In this document: positions 1 through 44,909 of the stretch, one piece after another
Layout of the letters: every line of letters starts with the position of its first letter
Numbering within the stretch: the first letter of the stretch is position 1
From: Candidatus Hydrogenedentota bacterium
Lineage (GTDB): Bacteria; Hydrogenedentota; Hydrogenedentia; Hydrogenedentales; SLHB01
Length of the DNA: 45,283 nt
Reading direction: 5' to 3'
Assembly (NCBI GenBank): GCA_029974275.1
Contig: JARKSN010000169.1
Span: 1 to 45,283 of the forward strand
Position numbers and translations under genes: made by a program
The notes under the pieces: model-generated
Told to the model about the DNA's origin: nothing
What the model saw: only the letters and a program-made list of their open reading frames with translations
Databases searched by the model: none

Positions 1-3000
1 GGCGGCGGCGGCGCGGGCGGCGGCGGCGGCCAAGGCGGCGGCGGCGGCGGCGGCGGCGCGCCCGTATATTGCGGTTCGCCAAGCTACACGCAGTTGTGCG
101 GCGGTCATGGCGGACGCGGCGGCGACGGCGGCCTGGGTCAAATAGGCGGCGTTGGAGGCGCGGGCGGCATTGGCGGCGCAGGCGGCGTTGGCGGCACGGG
201 CGGCGGCGCTATCGCGCTGGCAGCGCGCGGCCTTCTGCGGATATACAACACCTCGGGAACGGTTGACATCAACATTGCTGCGGGAGCCCCAGGAGCGGGC
301 GGCGCAGGCGGCGCGGGCACGGCAGGCGGCGCGGCCTCGGGCAGTACGGCGCGCGACGACTCGCAGTTCGACAGCGGCCGCACCAGTTACGGCACGCGCA
401 CAGGCGCCCATTACTACAACTGCAATCCCGTGAATTGCAATCCCTACCAGTGCAATCCCTATAACTGCAGTCCCTACCAGTGCAATCCTACCTGCAACTG
501 GGTGACCACCGCGGAATGTCCGCCGTGCGCGACCAACTATCGCGGCCAGTGTGCCACGGCATGCAACCACTGTGCAGGCAATTCAACCACCTACAGCACC
601 TGCTACAATACCTGTTACAATACCTGTTATAATACGTGCTACAGCACCTGCACCGACAATCGGACATGGTACTCGGGCGCGGGCGCCGTGGGAAGGTACG
701 GCGGCGCGGGCGGAAACGGTTCGTCCGGCGGCCAAGGCGGTCAGGGCGGCACGGGCGGCACGGGCGGCATCGGCACGCCGGGCATGCTCAAACTGCACGC
801 CTCGGTGATCGCGGCAACGAATGCACGCCTCATTTGCGAAAATCACACGGTCAACGCGGATACCCAGTACGCTGGGCGCGTGACCTATATTTCCAACGGC
901 CACACCAATCTTAGCTACGTTGGCTCCGGCGGCGCCGCCGAGACTATTTTGGTCGGCGACGTGGCCGCTTCCACCCTTGTCGGCGACTACTTGCGCGGCG
1001 ACAGCGTCTACGAAGCATCGGGCGTCAGAATCAAATGCCCGCTGATCGGCGAATTGGTGGATATCAACTCGAACAAGGTGGCCCCTGCGGTGGCGGGATA
1101 CATCGCCCAGACCGCATGGAACATGCCCAGCTTTGGCGGATCGGGCACGGTGCGCGTCGCCCAAGCCAGCCCAGACATCTACTCAGGCTACAACCAATAC
1201 TTCCTGTGGAACCCGAGCCTGACCACGGCCGTTCCATGGGTCCAGATACAAATTGTCCATGCGGGAACGACGTACTTGTATGATCTAACGTCGGGGCTGC
1301 CGCCAAACGGATACTGGTCGACCACTGCGCCGGCCGGAGCCACGTTTACGGCCATTACCGACACGACGCCGCCGACGACCACCATCTCGGCTCCGTCGGC
1401 CTCGGGCACGCGCGGCGGCCCGGTCACTTTCACCGTCACCTATGCGGACCGCGCTCCCGACAGCGGCATCGCCAGCATCAGTCTTGCTGCGGCGAACATC
1501 ACGCTCCACAAGACCGGCACGGCCAACGGGGCGGTCTCCGTTTCGGGATCGAATCCCACCTCGCGGACCGTTACCATCTCTAGCATCACCGGAGATGGGG
1601 AGCTGAGCATTTCCGTTGCAGCCGCCACGGCGACCAACGGCGGCGGATTGGCCGCAGACGCGGCCGGCCCGAGCGCCACGTTCGTCGCGGATAACACCCC
1701 GCCCGACATTAGCCTGGGCGGACCTTCCGCGAGCATCACCAAGAGCGGCCCGATTACCTTCGACGTGACCTACGGCGCAGACGCGAGCCTCATCACGCTG
1801 GCGCCTGCCGACGTGACGGTCAACGCGACGGGATCGGTCGCCGTGGGCAATATCGCGATTTCCACCGTGTCTCCCACCGTCAAGCGCGTGACGCTGAGCG
1901 CGATCACCGGCAATGGGTTGTTGGGGATCAGCATTGGCGCCGGAACGGCCCAAGACGCCTTGGGCAATTCCTGTCTGGCAACGGGCGCCAGCGACACCTG
2001 CCAAGTCGACAACGGACAGCCGACCGTTACGGTAAGCGGACCGTCCGTTTCCCAGACCAAAGGCGGGCCGGTTTCCTTCACCGTGACCTATGCCGATCCC
2101 ACCGTTAACGGCGTCACTTCCGGCATGGATGCCATCTCCTTGGCTTCTAGCAACGTCTCCCTGAACGCCACAGGAAACGCCACCGCCGGAACGATCACGA
2201 TAACGGGAACGGGCAACGTCGCCCGGACCGTGACCTTGAGTTCGGTGACGGGCAACGGCACGCTGGGCATTTCCATCGCTGCCGGAACCGCTACGGACGC
2301 TGTGGGCAATGCGGCAGTGGCGGCGAGCCCCAGTAGCACGTTCCGCGTGGATAACACGGCTCCCGTCCTTTCCATTGACCCGCCGAGTTTCAGCGGCAGC
2401 ATTCCGAACGGCATCGTGAGCTACACCGTCAACTACGTTGATCCCAACGACGGCACCGGCTGGAACTCGGGAATCAACGCCATTACCCTGGCGTCGGGCG
2501 ACGTGACCGTTCACACCACGGGCACCGTCACGACGGGCGCGGTCGTGGTCAGCGGAATAGGAAACTCCGCGCGCACCGTCGATGTCCCCGTGACGGGCGG
2601 CGACGGCTTTGTGTGGATCACCGTGGGGACAGGCACTGCCACGGACAACGTCGGCAACCAAGCCGTTGCAGGCGGCCCCAGCGCGCAACGCAAAGTGCAG
2701 AACGTCATTCCCGGCGTAACGATCAGCGATCCCTCGACTTCCGGACCGGTCAAGAGCACCGCCACGGTGACCTATACCATCCAATACGTGGGCATGGCCG
2801 ACGTAACGCTCGCCACGGGCGATCCCAAGCTGCGCCTGTACCAGCCGGGCGGCTCAACCGCTTCGGCAACCATGACCGTGTCCGGCAGCGGCAATACCAC
2901 GCGCACCGTCACCCTCACTAACCTAACGGGCGACGGCCCCTTGGGTATCACGCTGGACGCCGGCACCGGCACCGACTATTGGGGCGATCCTGCTCCGGCG

Positions 3001-6000
3001 GCCGGTCCCAGCACAATTCTCGGCGTGGACAACACCCCGCCGACCATCACCGTGACAGGTCCGGCTCCCAATCAGACGAGCACGAGCGATGTCGTATACA
3101 CCGTCACGTATACAGGCGCCGACTACATCACGTTGAGCAATGCCGACGTGAATCTGACCAAGACCGGCACCGTAATCGGAACGCCCTCCGTCAGTGCCTC
3201 GGGCAACCCGCGCACGGTGACCATCACCGGAGTCGGCGGAAACGGTTACCTGTACATCTCCTTGAATGCAGGCACCGCTTCCGACACGGCGGGCAATGTA
3301 GCGTTGGCGACCAGCAACAGCGCCCAGTGCAAGGTCCTGAACGACTCGCCGACGGTCACCGTCGGCGCTCCGTCCAAGGCCAATGCCAAGGCCAGCGATA
3401 CGGTCACCTTCCCCGTTGCCTATAGCGAGGGCATTGCCACCGTGAACCTGACGTCAGCCAAGGTGGCGCTCAACTGCACCGGGACGGCAACGGCCAGCAC
3501 GATCAACGTTTCCAACGGCACGACACGCACCCCGACGGTGAGTCTGAGCGGCCTCAGCGGCAACGGAAATATCGGCATTACGATCCAATCCGCCAGCGGC
3601 ACGGACTACTGGTCGCAGCCCGCCCCGGCCAGCGCGCCCAGCACGACGTTCCTGCTGGACACCGCTGCGCCCACCCTCTCGATAGGCGAGCCTTCGACGA
3701 CGGGACCTGTCGGCCCCGGCGGTTCTGTCACCTATACCGTGACCTATGTCGATCCGCTCACCGGCGGCGTCGCGACCGGCATTGACGCCATTACCCTGGA
3801 GGCCAGCGACATCACCTTGGTCACCACGGGCGGCGCCTCCGGCGTTGTGAGCGTCAGTGGAACCGAAAACGCCACGCGCACGATCACCATCAGCAACGTG
3901 AACGTGGTCGGCGGCGACGGAACCGGCACCATCGCGATTGATGAAATCGCCGCGGGAACCGCCACGGACGCCGCAGGCAACGCCGCCGTTGCCGTGACGA
4001 CCAACAGCACGGCGTTCAACGTCGATAGAAACGTATCGACCGTCAGTTTCTCTTCGCCGACGGCCACGATTGCCAACACCGGCCCCGTCTCCTATACGGT
4101 GACCTACAGCTACATGAACACCGTTACTTTGGCGGCGAGTCAGGTCACCCTCAACCGCACCGGCACGGCCAGCGCCAGCGTGAGCGTGTCGGGAACCGCA
4201 CAGCCCAACGCCGGCAATTCGTACACAGTGACTCGGACCATCACCCTGAGCAGCATCACGGGCGACGGCACGCTCAGCCTGAACCTGCCTTCCGGGACGG
4301 CTAAGAAGCGCCAGGCGGGCCATGTGGACGAACCTGCGGATGCGGCGGGCCCCAGCGACGCCATCCTGATCGACAACACCAAGCCGACCGTTACGGTTAG
4401 CGATCCCAACGTCACCAAAGTGACCAGTAGCGTTTCGTTCACCGTGACCTATGCCGATCCCGCCGCTGGGTCTGTTTCGTCCGGCGTGTCGGCCATTACG
4501 TTGGCTCCCGCCAACATAACCCTGAACACCACCAACACCGCTACGGGCACGGTGACGGTCAGCGGAAGCGGGCTCACCACACGCACCGTCACCATCAACG
4601 GCATCACCGGCGATGGCACGTTGGGCATCACGTTGAATGCAGGCACGGCCGTCGACGCAGCAGGCAACGCCACCAACGCGACGGGTGCAAGCGCCATATG
4701 CAATGTACTCAACTCGCCGGTTACCGTCAGCATCGGCGCCCCAGACCCGCCCATCGTGCGCGGCGGTCCTTTGGCCTTCGATGTCACCTATAGCGCGGGC
4801 GTGGGGACTATAACCCTCGTTCCGAGCGACGTCACCATCAACATGATGAAGAAAGCGCCCGAGGTCAACGCCGCCGGAAACGCGGCAGGCACTGTGAGCG
4901 ACGTTCAGGTCACGGGCGTCCGCACGCGCCGCGTCATCGTGTCCAACATCACCGGCGATGGCATGATCAGCATCAGCATCCCTGCTTCCACAGGGCTTGA
5001 CTACTGGTATGACCCGATTCCGCCGGCACCGGCCTCACCGGCCGCGTTTGTGGACAACGTCAAACCGGTGGTCATCATCTCGTCGCCCAATCCGGCCCAG
5101 ATCGGCACAGGATCCGTTTCCTTCACGCTGACCTATGCCGATCCGCCGGGCGCAGGATCGTATGCCTCCGGCATAAGTGCCATTACCTTGGCGGAAAGCG
5201 ACATCTCCATCAACAAGACCGGGACGGTCGCAGCATCCGTGGGCAGCATCACTTCGAGCGGGCCTACAACCCGCATCGTGACCCTAACGGGCGTTAGCGG
5301 CGACGGTTGGCTTGGCATATCCGTGGGCGCAGGCACTGGCGTGGATGCCGCGGGCAACACGACAGACCCAGCCGGGCCTAGCACGCGGTGCAAAGTCCAA
5401 AACAACCCGCCTTCCATCAACATCAGCGCTCCGATCGTGCCCGGCACGCCGCCGATCAAAATCACCAAGAACACTGCCAGCTATACCGTGACCTACACCG
5501 GCATGGCCAACGTGACCCTCGCTCCGGGCGACGTCACGCTGCATGCCACCGGCACGGCCTCCGGCACGATTTCGGTGACGGGTTCCGGCACATCGACCCG
5601 GACGGTCGCCATCAGTGGCATCGCCGGCGATGGAACCCTAGGCATTTCGATTGCCTCGGGCACGGGCACGGACTACTGGGACCAGGGCGCTCCTGCGTCC
5701 GGCATGAGCGCGACGTTCATCGTCGACAATACGGCGCCCGCCGTGACCGTGACGCCGCCCAGTGATATCGATCCGAACACGGGACTCTGGCGCACGCGCC
5801 ACGGACCGCTCGTGTTCACGGTCGACTATGCTGAACTGCACATGAGCGCGATAACCTTGGCCGCCTCTTCCGTGCAACTGAACACAACCGGCACTGTGAC
5901 GGTGGGTTCCGTAACGGTTGACGGCTCCGGCCTCGCCACGCGCACGGTGACGTTGAGCGACATCAACGGCGACGGCGCGGTGGGCATCCGAATCCCGTCG

Positions 6001-7425
6001 GAAACCGCCATAGACCATGCCGGCAACCTGGCCTTGGCCTCGCCCAACAGCGCGACCATGCCGGTGGACAACACGCCGCCGACGATAGCGGTTTCCGGTC
6101 CGACTCCGATCATCAGCAACCGCGGTCCCGTGACGTACACGGTCACCTACGGCGGCGCCGATGAAATATCGCTGACTCCGGCGTTGGTGAGTCTCGCCCG
6201 GACGGGCACCGCCACGGCTGCCGTTCAGGTGACCGGTTCCGGCCTGACGACACGCACCATCACCCTTTTCAACATGCGGGGCGATGGCACGATCATCGTG
6301 AACGTCCAACCGAACAGCGCCGCCGATAAATTCGGCAACGTGGCCCCTGCGGCCTCATCGGGCGTTCAAGACGTGCTGCGCGTCGACAACACGAAGCCCG
6401 TGATCCTCCTCAATGGAAGCGAGACGGTGAACATCGAGTACACCGACTGCTACACCGATGCCGGGGCGACCGCCTTCGACGACATCGACGGCGAAATCAC
6501 CGATCGGATAGTCACGGTCAACCCCGTGGACACGCTGTATCCTGAATCCATCACCTACAGCGTGCGCTACAACGTCAGCGACACCGCCGGCAACGCAGCC
6601 GACGAAGTCATCCGCACCGTGATCGTCAGTCGCCTGCCCAAACTCAGGACGATCGTCAACCTGCTGGGCGGCACGGCTTCCTACGGAGGCAACACCTGCC
6701 AGGCCACCATTATGGCGGGTCGTTTGACCGGAACGCGCACCAACGTCGTCATCGACCGTGCGCCGCGGTTCGCGATTCCGAACAGCCCCTTGAACATTGA
6801 ATGCGGCCTGTGCTTCTCCATCGAGCCGGAAACCACCTTCGTGTTCGGCAACTTCATCGGCACCGTGACCATCTGGTACGAAGACGACGGCACCGGAAAT
6901 GTCAAGGGCAGTGGCGGCCGCGTGCCCATTTCGACCCTGAAGATGGTTCGCAAGAATGGACGCACCGGCAACGTCGAAATCTACAACGGTTCGAAAGCGT
7001 TGCCGTTGGCTCGCCACGACCCAGAAGCCAAGTCCTTCACCGTAGACGCCGAAGTCTGGGGTCTTTATGCCTTGGAGGGCGCTCCCAACTATCTGGCGAA
7101 TCCGGACGCCGACACCGATCGCGATGGCATCCTGGACATTGTCGAGGATGACAACCACGACGGTCTCTGGTCGCACGTCGACGCCAACTTCCCGATGCGT
7201 TGGCCCTATCCGGGCAACGAAACCGACTGGATGAATTGGGACACGGACGGCGACGGCGTTTCCGATGGCGTGGAAATCGCTCTCGGCACGAACCCGCTTG
7301 ATCCGAACAGCCCCACCCACGCTGGCGGCACGACAGGCGTTCCCGTAACGGTTATGCCGGGCCTTGCCGCACTCGCGGCGATGTTTGGGGCCATTGGGCT
7401 GCGCGCGATGCGACGCAAGCGCTAA
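1..7425 (+). CDS. Giant cell-surface protein or adhesin, 5'-partial. Gly-rich head with Cys-rich insert, 15 bacterial Ig-like repeats, a DUF5011-like Ig domain, TSP3-like Ca-binding repeats and a C-terminal TM anchor or sorting signal
   Basis: Frame 1 is open from base 1 (GGGGAGGGGGQGG...) to TAA at 7423-7425. ~115-aa repeats begin DNTxP and contain YTVTY, RTVT, GDG and D.AGN motifs. DNTKPVILLNG...Y.D.GATA.D..DG resembles DUF5011. DTDRDG and DTDGDGVSDGVE motifs follow. The C-terminus is GVPVTVMPGLAALAAMFGAIGLRAMRRKR. Confidence 0.9.
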   Translation, partial: GGGGAGGGGGQGGGGGGGGAPVYCGSPSYTQLCGGHGGRGGDGGLGQIGGVGGAGGIGGAGGVGGTGGGAIALAARGLLRIYNTSGTVDINIAAGAPGAGGAGGAGTAGGAASGSTARDDSQFDSGRTSYGTRTGAHYYNCNPVNCNPYQCNPYNCSPYQCNPTCNWVTTAECPPCATNYRGQCATACNHCAGNSTTYSTCYNTCYNTCYNTCYSTCTDNRTWYSGAGAVGRYGGAGGNGSSGGQGGQGGTGGTGGIGTPGMLKLHASVIAATNARLICENHTVNADTQYAGRVTYISNGHTNLSYVGSGGAAETILVGDVAASTLVGDYLRGDSVYEASGVRIKCPLIGELVDINSNKVAPAVAGYIAQTAWNMPSFGGSGTVRVAQASPDIYSGYNQYFLWNPSLTTAVPWVQIQIVHAGTTYLYDLTSGLPPNGYWSTTAPAGATFTAITDTTPPTTTISAPSASGTRGGPVTFTVTYADRAPDSGIASISLAAANITLHKTGTANGAVSVSGSNPTSRTVTISSITGDGELSISVAAATATNGGGLAADAAGPSATFVADNTPPDISLGGPSASITKSGPITFDVTYGADASLITLAPADVTVNATGSVAVGNIAISTVSPTVKRVTLSAITGNGLLGISIGAGTAQDALGNSCLATGASDTCQVDNGQPTVTVSGPSVSQTKGGPVSFTVTYADPTVNGVTSGMDAISLASSNVSLNATGNATAGTITITGTGNVARTVTLSSVTGNGTLGISIAAGTATDAVGNAAVAASPSSTFRVDNTAPVLSIDPPSFSGSIPNGIVSYTVNYVDPNDGTGWNSGINAITLASGDVTVHTTGTVTTGAVVVSGIGNSARTVDVPVTGGDGFVWITVGTGTATDNVGNQAVAGGPSAQRKVQNVIPGVTISDPSTSGPVKSTATVTYTIQYVGMADVTLATGDPKLRLYQPGGSTASATMTVSGSGNTTRTVTLTNLTGDGPLGITLDAGTGTDYWGDPAPAAGPSTILGVDNTPPTITVTGPAPNQTSTSDVVYTVTYTGADYITLSNADVNLTKTGTVIGTPSVSASGNPRTVTITGVGGNGYLYISLNAGTASDTAGNVALATSNSAQCKVLNDSPTVTVGAPSKANAKASDTVTFPVAYSEGIATVNLTSAKVALNCTGTATASTINVSNGTTRTPTVSLSGLSGNGNIGITIQSASGTDYWSQPAPASAPSTTFLLDTAAPTLSIGEPSTTGPVGPGGSVTYTVTYVDPLTGGVATGIDAITLEASDITLVTTGGASGVVSVSGTENATRTITISNVNVVGGDGTGTIAIDEIAAGTATDAAGNAAVAVTTNSTAFNVDRNVSTVSFSSPTATIANTGPVSYTVTYSYMNTVTLAASQVTLNRTGTASASVSVSGTAQPNAGNSYTVTRTITLSSITGDGTLSLNLPSGTAKKRQAGHVDEPADAAGPSDAILIDNTKPTVTVSDPNVTKVTSSVSFTVTYADPAAGSVSSGVSAITLAPANITLNTTNTATGTVTVSGSGLTTRTVTINGITGDGTLGITLNAGTAVDAAGNATNATGASAICNVLNSPVTVSIGAPDPPIVRGGPLAFDVTYSAGVGTITLVPSDVTINMMKKAPEVNAAGNAAGTVSDVQVTGVRTRRVIVSNITGDGMISISIPASTGLDYWYDPIPPAPASPAAFVDNVKPVVIISSPNPAQIGTGSVSFTLTYADPPGAGSYASGISAITLAESDISINKTGTVAASVGSITSSGPTTRIVTLTGVSGDGWLGISVGAGTGVDAAGNTTDPAGPSTRCKVQNNPPSINISAPIVPGTPPIKITKNTASYTVTYTGMANVTLAPGDVTLHATGTASGTISVTGSGTSTRTVAISGIAGDGTLGISIASGTGTDYWDQGAPASGMSATFIVDNTAPAVTVTPPSDIDPNTGLWRTRHGPLVFTVDYAELHMSAITLAASSVQLNTTGTVTVGSVTVDGSGLATRTVTLSDINGDGAVGIRIPSETAIDHAGNLALASPNSATMPVDNTPPTIAVSGPTPIISNRGPVTYTVTYGGADEISLTPALVSLARTGTATAAVQVTGSGLTTRTITLFNMRGDGTIIVNVQPNSAADKFGNVAPAASSGVQDVLRVDNTKPVILLNGSETVNIEYTDCYTDAGATAFDDIDGEITDRIVTVNPVDTLYPESITYSVRYNVSDTAGNAADEVIRTVIVSRLPKLRTIVNLLGGTASYGGNTCQATIMAGRLTGTRTNVVIDRAPRFAIPNSPLNIECGLCFSIEPETTFVFGNFIGTVTIWYEDDGTGNVKGSGGRVPISTLKMVRKNGRTGNVEIYNGSKALPLARHDPEAKSFTVDAEVWGLYALEGAPNYLANPDADTDRDGILDIVEDDNHDGLWSHVDANFPMRWPYPGNETDWMNWDTDGDGVSDGVEIALGTNPLDPNSPTHAGGTTGVPVTVMPGLAALAAMFGAIGLRAMRRKR
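421..492 (+). repeat. 15-bp coding tandem repeat, about 5 units, encoding C-N/S-P-x-x
   Basis: tgcaatcccgtgaat tgcaatccctaccag tgcaatccctataac tgcagtccctaccag tgcaatcctacc. Confidence 0.9.
598..651 (+). repeat. 12-bp coding tandem repeat, about 4.5 units, encoding T-C-Y-N/S
   Basis: acctgctacaat acctgttacaat acctgttataat acgtgctacagc acctgc. Confidence 0.9.
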
Positions 7426-41104: not shown

Positions 41105-41455
41105 TTGTGTCAAGCACCTGCCCGTGATGCAATTTTGATGCACTTCCCTGCAACACACTCCCCTCGTGGGTGGATTTCTTTGATTCCGGGATTCTGCTTC
41201 TCACTCCCAAAAAGACGGAACAAAACCCACAAAATGCCGCCCCATTTTGCCGCAATTGCATCATATGTGCATTATTTCCGTGATGCACTTCGGTAACATA
41301 TTGTTAATTAATGTGTTATGGCGCAATTCAAGGTGATTGTTACTCACCTGTTGACATTAGTTGCCGTTTCTGGTAGCTTTGAGAAGGACGCATATGTGTG
41401 GGTTCCATCCCAAAGTACCGGAACAAAATCCACAAAACTCCCGGAGGCTCGCGGC

Positions 41456-42577
41456 ATGGCAACGATACTCAACCGGAAGGACAAGAGCGGCAAGGTTCAC
41501 CACGCCGTGCAAATTCGCATGAAAGGGCATGCGCCTGCGTTCGCGTCTTTCGAGCGATTGACGGACGCGCGCAAGTGGGCCGTGCAAACGGAAGCCGCTA
41601 TCCGGGAAGGCCGCTACTTCACAACGTCGGAGTCCCAGAAGCACACGTTGGGTGAAGCCATTGACCGCTACGTCCGCGACGTGTTGCCGCACAAGAAGCC
41701 CAGTAGCATCTACTCGCAGACGATACAATTGACGTGGTGGAAAGAACGCCTGGGATGCTTTGTGCTTGCCGACATAACGCCGCCCGTCATTGCGGAGTCC
41801 CGCGACGCCCTGCTAAACGGCGAGACGCACCTCCATGCGAAACGCTCAAATTCTACTGTCGTTCGTTACATGGCCGTCCTCTCGCATTTGTTCACCGTGG
41901 CCATGAAGGAGTGGGGATGGGTGGACGATTCGCCCATGCGCCGCGTGTCGAAGCCCAAGGAACCACGGGGCCGCGTGCGTTTCTTGAGCGATGACGAACG
42001 CGCACGATTGTTGATCGCGTGCAAGGAATCCCGTTGCCCCTATCTCTACCCCGTCGTTGTGCTTGCCCTATCAACGGGTATGCGCAAGATGGAAATGCTC
42101 AGTCTCACGTGGGCCGATGTAGACCTGGGCCGGGCCGTGATCACGTTGCAGGAAACCAAGAACGGCGAACGCCGCGCCGTGCCGCTTGTGGGCCACGCCT
42201 TTGACCTACTGCAAGACCTCGCCAAGACACGCCGTATCGACACGCCTATGCTCTTCCCCGCGCCATTCCGTCACGGGTACGCGCCGAAACACTGCGACAT
42301 TCAATCCGCCTGGGATTGGGCCGTGAAACGAGCGGAACTCACGGATTTTCGCTTCCACGATCTGAGGCATTCCGCCGCGTCCTACTTGGCCATGAACGGG
42401 GCAAGTCTCGCGGAAATCGCCGAAGTCCTTGGGCACAAGACCTTGCAGATGGTGAAGCGGTATGCCCACCTATCCCATGCCCACACAAGCCGCGTTGTCG
42501 CGAGTATGAACGCCGCGATCTTCGCCAAGACAAAAGAAGCTCAATGCTCAGAGGAATCCACAGATGGAAGAAAGTGA
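41456..42577 (+). CDS. Site-specific tyrosine integrase (Rci/HP1-like)
   Basis: TGMR, TKNG, FRFHDLRH, LGH and RYAH catalytic residues; RBS ggagg before ATG 41456. Confidence 0.95.
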   Translation: MATILNRKDKSGKVHHAVQIRMKGHAPAFASFERLTDARKWAVQTEAAIREGRYFTTSESQKHTLGEAIDRYVRDVLPHKKPSSIYSQTIQLTWWKERLGCFVLADITPPVIAESRDALLNGETHLHAKRSNSTVVRYMAVLSHLFTVAMKEWGWVDDSPMRRVSKPKEPRGRVRFLSDDERARLLIACKESRCPYLYPVVVLALSTGMRKMEMLSLTWADVDLGRAVITLQETKNGERRAVPLVGHAFDLLQDLAKTRRIDTPMLFPAPFRHGYAPKHCDIQSAWDWAVKRAELTDFRFHDLRHSAASYLAMNGASLAEIAEVLGHKTLQMVKRYAHLSHAHTSRVVASMNAAIFAKTKEAQCSEESTDGRK

Positions 42578-43889: not shown

Positions 43890-44909
43890 TCAGTTTGCCA
43901 TAGCAGCCTGTAATACGCAAGCAGTTTGTGCGTAGGGCGCCGACGCCTCCTTTCTTGCAGCCTGGCGCCGCTCTTTTCGCTCGGCGCGGGCCGCTTCGAG
44001 TTTGCGGTCGCGCTCGGCAAAAATCGCCTGGTCGCGGCCTTCGAGTTTGTCTTTGGGCGTCACGAATCCGATGGCGCTGTGCAGCCGGACCTCGTTGTAA
44101 CGCGCGACGTAGCGACCCACGACGCGCCGGGCGTCGTCGAGCGACAGCGGCGTTTGCGGGCGGATGCATTCGGTCTTCAGCGACTTGTGCCAGCGCTCGA
44201 TCTTGCCGTTGCTCTGCGGGTAATACGGGGACGTCCGGACATGGGTCATGCCGCTGATGCGGATGTACTCCTTGAAGTCCTTGGCGATGAACTGCGGGCC
44301 GTTGTCGGAGATGATGCGGGGACGCGCCTGCGGGAACGCTTCCTTGGCACGCTCCAGGATGATCTCGATGTCGGCCTCGGTCATGGCCTCGCGGATATCC
44401 CAATGGACGATGAACCGGCTGCAGCCGTCCAACACGCTGCACAGGTAGTAAAAAGTCCCGCAAATGTTGATGTACGAGACGTCGACGTGCCAGTGTTCGT
44501 GCGGCGACAACGGCTGGATGAAGCCCGTACCCTTCCTGGACTCCTTGCCGTTCCAGGGATTCAATAGACCCGCGTCGCGCAACACCCGCCACACGCTCGT
44601 CGGTCCCACGGCCACCACGTCCGCGTCCAGCATCATGAACGTCAGGCGCCGGTAGCCCTCGTCCGGATGTTCCAGGTAATAGGCGATGATCGTCTGCTTC
44701 TCCCAGTCCTCGAGCCAGAAGTCACGGGGAATCTTGCCGTTGTGCTCGTTCACCTTGCCGTACCGGGCATGCCAGTTGTAGAACTTGCTCCGGCCGATGC
44801 CCAGCCAGCCGATAAACCGCCCCACGGCGATCGCCGTCTTTTCCGACCAGCCGTTCACGAAATCCATGATCGCGTCTCGCACGTCGTGTGCCACCCAGGT
44901 CCCGTTCAA
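43890..44909 (-). CDS. IS3-family transposase OrfB (DDE integrase core)
   Basis: GYRR, WHVDVSYI (D), ISDNGPQF (D), SNGKIERWH (E), YNEVRLHSAIG..TP. Confidence 0.95.
   Translation of the reverse strand: MNGTWVAHDVRDAIMDFVNGWSEKTAIAVGRFIGWLGIGRSKFYNWHARYGKVNEHNGKIPRDFWLEDWEKQTIIAYYLEHPDEGYRRLTFMMLDADVVAVGPTSVWRVLRDAGLLNPWNGKESRKGTGFIQPLSPHEHWHVDVSYINICGTFYYLCSVLDGCSRFIVHWDIREAMTEADIEIILERAKEAFPQARPRIISDNGPQFIAKDFKEYIRISGMTHVRTSPYYPQSNGKIERWHKSLKTECIRPQTPLSLDDARRVVGRYVARYNEVRLHSAIGFVTPKDKLEGRDQAIFAERDRKLEAARAERKERRQAARKEASAPYAQTACVLQAAMAN

Follow-up and report, generated by a model that had tools for sequence, protein, structure and literature searches.

The 45,283-nucleotide (nt) stretch of DNA analysed here (the window) is contig JARKSN010000169.1 of assembly GCA_029974275.1, from a Candidatus Hydrogenedentota bacterium, and it opens inside the gene of a giant surface protein. 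Close to the start of the open reading frame (ORF) lies a block of 16 cysteines (Cys) in which two periodic arms enclose a non-repetitive knob. By its sequence, this block is an example of a module that recurs elsewhere and has no name, (C-N-P-Y-x)n - knob - (C-Y-x-T)n. The reading that we favour, with moderate confidence, is that it is a plug-in stalk-and-tip module seated in a variable loop, with arms that pair unit for unit and display the knob.

The 16 Cys lie within amino acids (aa) 141-217 of frame +1. C1-C5 are spaced five residues apart (CNPVN CNPYQ CNPYN CSPYQ CNPT; starts at nt 421, 436, 451, 466 and 481), the six Cys C6-C11, from nt 493 to 573, follow no regular spacing, and C12-C16 are spaced four residues apart (CYNT three times, CYST and C; starts at nt 601, 613, 625, 637 and 649). 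The 5 + 6 + 5 layout that an initial annotation had placed at these codons was exact in both sequence and translation. The parts of the block and its collars are as follows.

385 to 420, + strand: N-side aromatic collar SYGTRTGAHYYN, which runs into C1 (alignments A2 and A3)
421 to 483, + strand: N-arm, C1-C5, four pentapeptides C-[NS]-P-[VY]-x and a fifth Cys; 15-bp tandem repeat
484 to 600, + strand: knob, NPT-C6...C11 with six Cys and no repeats, then a 'TYST' unit devoid of Cys
601 to 651, + strand: C-arm, C12-C16, four tetrapeptides C-Y-[NS]-T and a closing Cys; 12-bp tandem repeat
652 to 672, + strand: C-side collar TDNRTWY

Tyr-rich collars resembling SYGTRTGAHYYN are present in other modules. 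Tandem Repeats Finder reported a 15-bp unit (3.9 copies) at 436-492 and a separate 12-bp unit (4.5 copies) at 598-651, so that the two distinct DNA repeats claimed for the arms were both recovered. The block is also lower in G+C content (GC) than its surroundings, as had been noted, with values of 0.52-0.61 over 361-660 and 0.70-0.81 in the flanks. Within the insert GC was 0.527 and GC at third codon positions (GC3) was 0.705, compared with a GC3 of 0.755-0.86 elsewhere in the gene. Because GC3 is only modestly lower, the dip is mostly the result of amino-acid composition (Asn, Tyr, Thr and Cys amid Gly runs). AAT codons amplified along with the repeat units add to it: AAT accounts for 10 of 15 Asn codons in the insert, as against 26 of 130 in the gene outside it.

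When the 88-aa block was shuffled, none of 200,000 permutations contained both runs (at least four gaps of 5 and at least four gaps of 4), and when all six frames of the 4.38-Mb genome were scanned, this was the only locus with the pattern. Counted in gaps, the window has four gaps of 5 and four gaps of 4. The matched five-Cys arms of the initial annotation hold when the fifth N-arm gap (CNPT-C, four residues) is given to the knob; if runs are defined instead by gaps of 4-5 residues, the window arms have five gaps and four gaps.

We searched for the block in other proteins. A full phmmer search against 1.84 billion representatives returned 18 matches, of which P0016 only had both arms. The remainder of P0005-P0022 share only the C-x-P-x-x pentapeptide or other repeats, have no second arm and were rejected as relatives. 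Among these, P0005, P0007-P0010, P0013-P0015, P0017 and P0019-P0022 are proteins of 674-4106 aa (most above 2,600 aa) with many 16-residue four-Cys units, C-E-P-x-x-C-x-P-x-x-C-[DN]-P-x-x-C, and in many of them the C-terminal tail is rich in Cys. Longer proteins were sought with a word-based search, which yielded P0023-P0027, all built as (C-N-P-Y-x)n - C-N-C - knob - C-x-T - (C-Y-x-T)n - C, and a profile of five such proteins identified 230 proteins of a scaffold family of 260-420 aa. In the best 120 of these 230, a hypervariable Cys-rich insert with 6-36 Cys occupies one fixed site. Pattern scans added 17 loci in genomes, 58 in metagenomes and 35 in viral contigs. With the module taken as at least three C-[NDS]-[PAG]-[YFHV]-x units partnered by at least three C-[YWF]-x-[TS] units, the window contributes four units and CNPT on the five-residue side (nt 421-495) and four units and a closing Cys on the other (nt 601-651).

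The largest group of carriers was the P0023 family, with proteins of ~300 aa on viral contigs. Others were Gly-rich phage proteins of ~400 aa (one of which, L041, matches Gly_rich_2 with E = 4.9e-9), proteins sorted by the type IX secretion system (L013 and L016), prepilin-like proteins (L011 and P0027) and surface proteins of 1100-3100 aa (L010, L012 and L020). Hosts of the module are secreted or virion-surface proteins, with the domains Por_Secre_tail, N_methyl, Ig-like and Gly_rich_2. By their record labels, the metagenome-assembled genomes (MAGs) that carry it belong to Cytophagales, Bacteroidia, Muribaculaceae, Bacilli, Saccharibacteria, Proteobacteria, Bradymonadia and Planctomycetia. 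In a BLASTP comparison of window aa 1-470 with all module-bearing ORFs, with low complexity masked, only the four homologues P0001-P0004 were found, via the domain downstream of the block; no homology between the window protein and the other carriers was detected outside the module. PHROGs gave nothing on six scaffold proteins and matched P0027 to a family of unknown function only, through its pilin-like N-terminus; a tblastn search of phage GenBank with P0104 gave no match.

The lengths of the two arms vary together. Among 122 proteins, 13 had two runs of at least three Cys gaps (4-5 residues), and in all 12 cases other than the window the runs were equal: 4/4, 5/5 (three times), 6/6, 7/7 (twice), 8/8 (twice), 9/9, 11/11 and 12/12. 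The proteins and loci were then combined, and once duplicate modules, one module truncated by a contig end and six with at least three runs (nested or tandem) had been taken out, 57 distinct two-run modules were left. Their run lengths were equal in 35, differed by one in 18 and differed by two or more in 4 (Spearman's rho 0.77), whereas shuffling of partners in 10,000 trials gave a mean of 10.8 equal pairs and a maximum of 23. Equal arms were found at n = 3, 4, 5, 6, 7, 8, 9, 11 and 12, and therefore at least eight changes of n must have affected both arms. Many of the cases that differ by one are boundary effects with a constant pattern in the Gly-rich phage subfamily, where N-arm gaps of (5)k,4,1 are always opposite (4)k+2. 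A cruder Cys-for-Cys count, in which arms were extended through gaps of up to 5, gave 30 equal, 15 differing by one and 12 by more, and because that count is noisy where knobs are Cys-dense the run-length count is preferred.

The partnership itself was constant: all 58 two-run modules have one 5-period and one 4-period arm, with the 4-period arm first in 14 of them. In the arm alignments the invariant columns are the Cys and one Thr in the C-arm. What lies between the arms can be as short as 5 aa (L016) or as long as 298 aa (a repeat-rich domain in L023), and therefore the arms are the conserved part and must bring their ends together. L023, an 899-aa open frame from an Alphaproteobacteria MAG, has the reversed order, with five tetrapeptides, ~300 aa of propeller-like repeats and five pentapeptides, so the knob can be a whole domain. 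In L031, L033, L036, P0041, L053 and L079 we observed nested or tandem forms, in which arms change from 5-period to 4-period midway or several arm pairs occur in one protein.

Taken together, these results support one-to-one pairing of the arms as a tip-displaying stalk. The test suggested in the initial annotation, whether the n values co-vary in homologues and the knobs are hypervariable, gave a favourable answer, with arm unit numbers tracking each other from 3 to 12 and knobs of 5 to ~300 aa. Its description of a length-tunable, exchangeable tip is also fair, as the module occurs in unrelated scaffolds with varying n and knob. Its proposal that the arms zip antiparallel through five disulfides survived in part: arm co-variation supports the pairing, and no result shows the rungs to be disulfides.

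Comparison with homologues shows that the block is a lineage-specific insert of ~100 aa in a variable loop of a glycine-rich domain. A search with the downstream domain (aa 225-460) identified four long homologues, P0001-P0004, that share the window's order of motifs: a Gly-rich run, 'GGGAxxLxARGLL...INISAG', a second Gly-rich run and 'G[TA]PGMxKLHGS'. At the insert site, the window has ~100 residues where these homologues have a loop of 9-17 residues. When 41 genomes (the organism's own and relatives) were searched, 12 gave matches, and in these the alignments begin after the insert or in its last ~15 residues. The single exception is G008, whose weak match (E = 8e-4) extends into the N-arm of the insert and is interrupted by an internal TGA stop. 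In nine sequences from paralogues or relatives, the stretch before the conserved motif is Gly-rich, with 0-4 Cys and no arms. P0003 and L123 have a short two-Cys loop (C-x6-C-G-G) precisely at the window's insert site, which could be a minimal closed loop at that position.

We also looked for natural variation at the locus and found the insert conserved. Contigs from four sequencing runs of four studies cover nt 294-854 piecewise, and in these contigs there was no insertion or deletion and no arm copy-number polymorphism. Ten of the 12 substitutions were synonymous, and the only amino-acid change within the insert was N179S, in the knob. Apparent 'joints' that skip 422-441 nt were rejected as deletion alleles; their flanks are merely a 21-22-nt Gly-codon repeat, and they were ascribed to other genes.

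The mechanism that we propose is as follows. The host protein would be a long surface fibre, anchored at its C-terminus, with the module in one loop of its glycine-rich head. The arms would run antiparallel, each C-N-P-Y-x unit lying opposite one C-Y-x-T unit, and each unit pair would be pinned by its two Cys, most likely as a disulfide once the protein is extracellular. In the window, the stalk would have five rungs, from C1-C16 to C5-C12, and the 39-residue knob would use its six Cys for three further pairs. The stalk would lift the knob past the other loops of the glycine-rich domain, and the knob would be the tip that contacts a ligand. Repeat number would set stalk length, with survival only of variants that alter both arms together. 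What the sequences show is the pattern itself, its status as an insert, its recurrence in many scaffolds, the co-variation of unit numbers and the constant partnership of a 5-period with a 4-period arm. The antiparallel pairing, the disulfide chemistry, the Cys connectivity and the binding function of the knob are the parts of this scheme that we infer; by analogy with solved phage adhesin tips, the distal head may display the knob on its short stalk as a recognition tip.

Several results weigh against this proposal. AlphaFold2 on the window module, with a 29-row alignment, gave an unusable model (mean predicted local distance difference test score, pLDDT, 46.6). For P0023, with 108 family sequences, the mean pLDDT was 89.4, and two long strands, E93-114 and E198-218 (pLDDT 97-98), flank the insert and contain its first and last Cys, which counts in favour of the proposal; the arms themselves, however, had a pLDDT of 59-78, with the 5-period arm shown as short turns and the 4-period C-arm modelled as helix and not as strand. 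No contact between arms and no disulfide appeared in any result. Arm-arm complex prediction from alignments A3 and A4 (score 0.02, mark 0.32) was counted neither way. If the arms do pair, the stalk might be a beta-ribbon with one bulge per pentapeptide or a helix stapled to a turn-rich strand. The window also lacks the inner caps 'CNC' and 'CxTC' that are common in most modules (it has CNPT-C), as do L010, L012, L016 and L020. The sequences behind the permutation test are interrelated, so the test overstates their independence, and 4 of the 57 modules are mismatched by at least two units. Close relatives can differ in one arm only (L009 5/5 and L037 5/4; L034 5/5 and L017 3/5; L031 5/6 and L036 5/4), and L037, L017 and L036 are either real variants or collapsed short-read assemblies. 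By the Cys-for-Cys count, the Cys total is odd in 19 of the 57 modules and even in 38. Finally, searches for DsbB, VKOR, Thioredoxin_4, DSBA and COX1 all came back empty in this genome, whose marker genes put it at 100% completeness. Cytochrome bd is present, and the organism's DNA was detected in wastewater, anaerobic-digester and activated-sludge runs from 15 studies; it is probably anaerobic or microaerophilic. The lack of Dsb/VKOR-type genes together with this habitat makes enzymatic oxidative folding doubtful in this host, and therefore either disulfides would have to arise with no help from such enzymes or some other interaction keeps the rungs together.

The main alternative takes up the second of these possibilities: the arms pair, with rungs that are metal-thiolate (Zn, Fe or Cu) or reduced, giving a metal-dependent or redox-switchable zipper. 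It is favoured by the host's lack of oxidative-folding enzymes and of haem-copper oxidase, by its digester and wastewater occurrence and by the odd Cys totals just described. Many carriers, moreover, are phage virion proteins made in a reducing cytoplasm, and others come from gut and rumen MAGs. However, Cys4 sites would need paired rungs, yet by the Cys-for-Cys count the number of Cys per arm is often odd (5, 7, 9, 11 or 13), and the arm alignments contain no conserved His or Asp co-ligands. Metallothioneins and zinc ribbons bind through CxC and CxxC motifs, a spacing that differs from that of the arms. We consider this alternative unlikely, while ranking it first among the rivals to the disulfide-pinned stalk.

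It is improbable that the block is a Cys-rich cross-linker or spacer that bonds the fibre to its neighbours or to a matrix, in the manner of high-sulfur keratin-associated proteins. The C-x-P-x-x pentapeptide does resemble Keratin_B2_2, to which P0026 gave a weak match (E = 0.0035, 17.6 bits, cut-off 27), and modules with an odd Cys total would have a free thiol to offer. Cross-linking, though, leaves unexplained the equal arm numbers, the constant 5-/4-period partnership and the placement in loops of folded domains with adjacent ends.

Low AlphaFold2 confidence on the arms and the tandem repetition of the DNA could also mean that there is no inter-arm structure at all, with each arm looping locally from one Cys to the next, or the whole region being disordered, low-complexity sequence that grew by slippage. 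This is distinctly improbable, because the odd numbers of Cys that are frequent in single arms are impossible to satisfy by pairing within an arm, the equality of unit numbers over n = 3-12 would be unexplained, the Cys are invariant columns, and the four runs showed no length polymorphism and mostly synonymous substitutions.

That the repeat is the target of a radical S-adenosylmethionine (radical-SAM)/SPASM peptide-modifying enzyme of the TIGR04114 'Cxxx repeat' type, whose short precursors are encoded next to the enzyme, is very improbable: TIGR04114 matches the C-arm (E = 0.03) and the Joint Genome Institute (JGI) name of P0024 is 'modification target Cys-rich repeat protein', but the score of 14.8 bits is under the 20-bit cut-off, the repeat sits inside a 2474-aa secreted protein, the 27 downstream window ORFs scanned include no radical-SAM gene (the upstream side is off the contig), and some stand-alone (CYNT)n 'peptides' are wrong-frame readings. 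In L069 (2081-3316), a seven-unit CYNT 'peptide' proved to be an out-of-frame reading of a (TPAI)n repeat that belongs to a 412-aa membrane-anchored ORF, a case that serves as a warning for pattern-based searches for Cxxx-repeat peptides. The stand-alone (CYNT)n small ORFs L065-72, L081-83 and L117 were dropped; the checks covered L022, L069, L081 and L117, and no radical-SAM gene was found among the 16 neighbour ORFs scanned at these four loci.

The stalk-and-knob reading invites comparison with the bovine ultralong third heavy-chain complementarity-determining region (CDR-H3), to which the initial annotation had likened the block. The bovine region is a long two-stranded outgrowth of a loop of a folded domain, with a stalk of variable length and a small, Cys-rich, variable recognition knob. 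The module would share this layout, the pairing of its arms being supported by co-variation, and the block is a loop insert in the same sense, since homologues and relatives have short loops at the site. The analogy extends to this predicted topology only. In its chemistry the bovine stalk differs, as a plain beta-ribbon that is not known to have disulfide rungs, with disulfides in the knob only, whereas the module has one Cys per repeat in both arms, with periods of 5 and 4. Ultralong CDR-H3 regions arise by variable-diversity-joining, V(D)J, recombination and somatic mutation, while variation in the module is germ-line and evolutionary. Nor is the host an immunoglobulin V domain of somatic origin; it is the product of a bacterial chromosomal gene among housekeeping genes.

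Cystine-ladder beta-hairpins (theta-defensins, protegrin- and tachyplesin-type peptides) offer a parallel to the proposed stalk, being antiparallel strands with a row of Cys-Cys rungs. These peptides have ~18 aa and 2-3 rungs, with C-x-C spacing and equal periods on both strands; the module, in contrast, has 3-14 putative rungs that are 4 or 5 residues apart, unequal periods and a location within large proteins. Among named families, TIGR04114 (tSAM_targ_Cxxx) shares a Cys period of 4 with the C-arm, matching below its curated cut-off, and Keratin_B2_2 (PF13885) shares the Cys-Pro pentapeptide, with no window match and P0026 below cut-off as given above. Paired arms whose periods differ and whose unit numbers match are absent from both families. 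Daugavet et al. (10.64898/2026.06.07.730663; PMC7379824) describe cysteine-rich repeats with a different spacing, Cx6-9Cx5-7Cx8-11Cx7-8CC, and these were set aside as another module.

Phage adhesins offer a likeness at the level of the host domain. As described in PMC9608196, the tips of Pam3 gp24 and S16 gp38 consist of glycine-rich motifs that form a conserved stem and hypervariable distal loops that bind the receptor. The host domain in the window likewise alternates GGxGG motifs with short variable loops, one of which the module replaces, and the phage Gly_rich_2 (PF21722) protein L041 carries the Cys module. The window differs from Gly_rich_2 and gp38-like domains in that its Gly-rich region has no Pfam match, and the solved domains have no Cys stalk. 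The P0023 scaffold was modelled as a beta-sandwich, for which Foldseek gave weak matches to galectin/ConA-like lectins and to a mycobacteriophage central fibre (best E = 2.7e-3, none reaching 0.001); the ConA/galectin-like phage tail proteins weakly matched include mycobacteriophage Douge gp20 and the phage J-1 Dit CBM2. The window protein does not use a scaffold of this kind.

We found no description of the module in Pfam, NCBIfam, PHROGs, PDB sequences or the ESM Atlas. The PDB sequence search gave a chance-level match only (E = 1.5), the ESM Atlas gave no usable match, and neither Pfam nor NCBIfam gave a match above cut-off, in agreement with the initial statement that there is no named bacterial domain for it. 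A literature search that left out ~1.7 million PMC articles and most subscription journals found no earlier description.

The gene that carries the block is truncated at its 5' end. Frame +1 is open from base 1 to 7425, giving a 2474-aa ORF; the contig start falls within the gene, in a genome assembled as 342 contigs. The remaining features of the gene are listed below.

1 to 384, + strand: glycine-rich motifs GGxGGxGG, upstream half of the insert's host domain (from sequence; motif order as in P0001-P0004 and relatives)
205 to 285, + strand: beta-strand-like segment GGAIALAARGLL...INIAAG between Gly-rich motifs (from sequence)
673 to 780, + strand: glycine-rich motifs 3' of the insert, last residues GTPGMLKLH
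781 to 1380, + strand: conserved domain without Pfam match, common to P0001-P0004, own-genome paralogues and relatives
1381 to 6405, + strand: ~17 tandem Ig-like repeats ('TVTYAD...' units; from sequence)
6406 to 6627, + strand: Bact_surface_Ig-like domain, aa 2136-2209 (Pfam E = 2.5e-11)
7240 to 7305, + strand: bacterial TSP3 repeat, aa 2414-2435 (Pfam E = 2.7e-8)
7336 to 7422, + strand: C-terminal G-V-P motif, hydrophobic helix and RRKR tail (from sequence)

The host region (aa 1-460), which is cut by the contig start, matched no Pfam family at E up to 10 and no NCBIfam family. Outside it, the Bact_surface_Ig-like domain and the TSP3 repeat were the only Pfam matches in the protein; the window's own Ig-like repeats at 1381-6405 had none, and homologue P0001 matches Big_12. 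The C-terminus looks like a sorting or anchor signal, and it had no NCBIfam match; in the window protein and in P0001-P0004 alike, a G-[VL]-P-like motif is followed by a hydrophobic helix, and a tail rich in Arg/Lys closes the chain.

Housekeeping genes lie next to the surface-protein gene, among them pgk, pnp, trp genes, chorismate synthase, prepilin peptidase, MacB-type transporter genes, exbB, fliP and purL. At the far end of the window, past dfp/coaBC, are a phage-type integrase gene (41318-42574) and an rve-family transposase gene (43890-44906). The genome has at least six paralogues of the downstream domain, on contigs C204, C174, C130, C123, C30 and C135, several of which are cut at contig ends inside Gly-codon repeats. 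Contig C109 ends in a 680-aa open frame with a signal-peptide-like start, a GDS(W) hydrolase-like motif, Ig-like repeats and a Gly-rich run, which could be the missing N-terminal part of the window gene or of a paralogue; C264 carries a shorter, C109-like fragment.

The wider reading, to which we give somewhat less than even credence, is that bacteria and phages share a portable, length-tunable stalk of unit-matched 5/4 arrays that can be inserted in unrelated surface domains (lectin folds, glycine-rich adhesin tips, T9SS cargo, pilins and giant fibres), with cargo from a 5-residue turn to a whole 300-residue domain. If so, it would be a microbial counterpart of the stalk-and-knob of cow antibodies and a general way to diversify surface contacts. 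If the arms pair rung by rung, they would embody an undescribed structural principle, in which repeats of different period have their copy numbers held equal by folding, and would form a rigid spacer whose length evolves stepwise. With the window, this family gains a carrier on a bacterial chromosome, a host domain rich in glycine and a host organism that lacks the standard oxidative-folding genes; because the usual disulfide-forming enzymes are missing there, the chemistry of the rungs becomes a testable question. The module corrects the misleading automatic name 'modification target Cys-rich repeat protein', and protein engineers would gain a natural scaffold, adjustable in length, on which to display small knobs or entire domains. 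Studies of host range and adhesion profit from it as well, since it marks likely recognition tips in many phage receptor-binding proteins and bacterial adhesins that are still uncharacterised.

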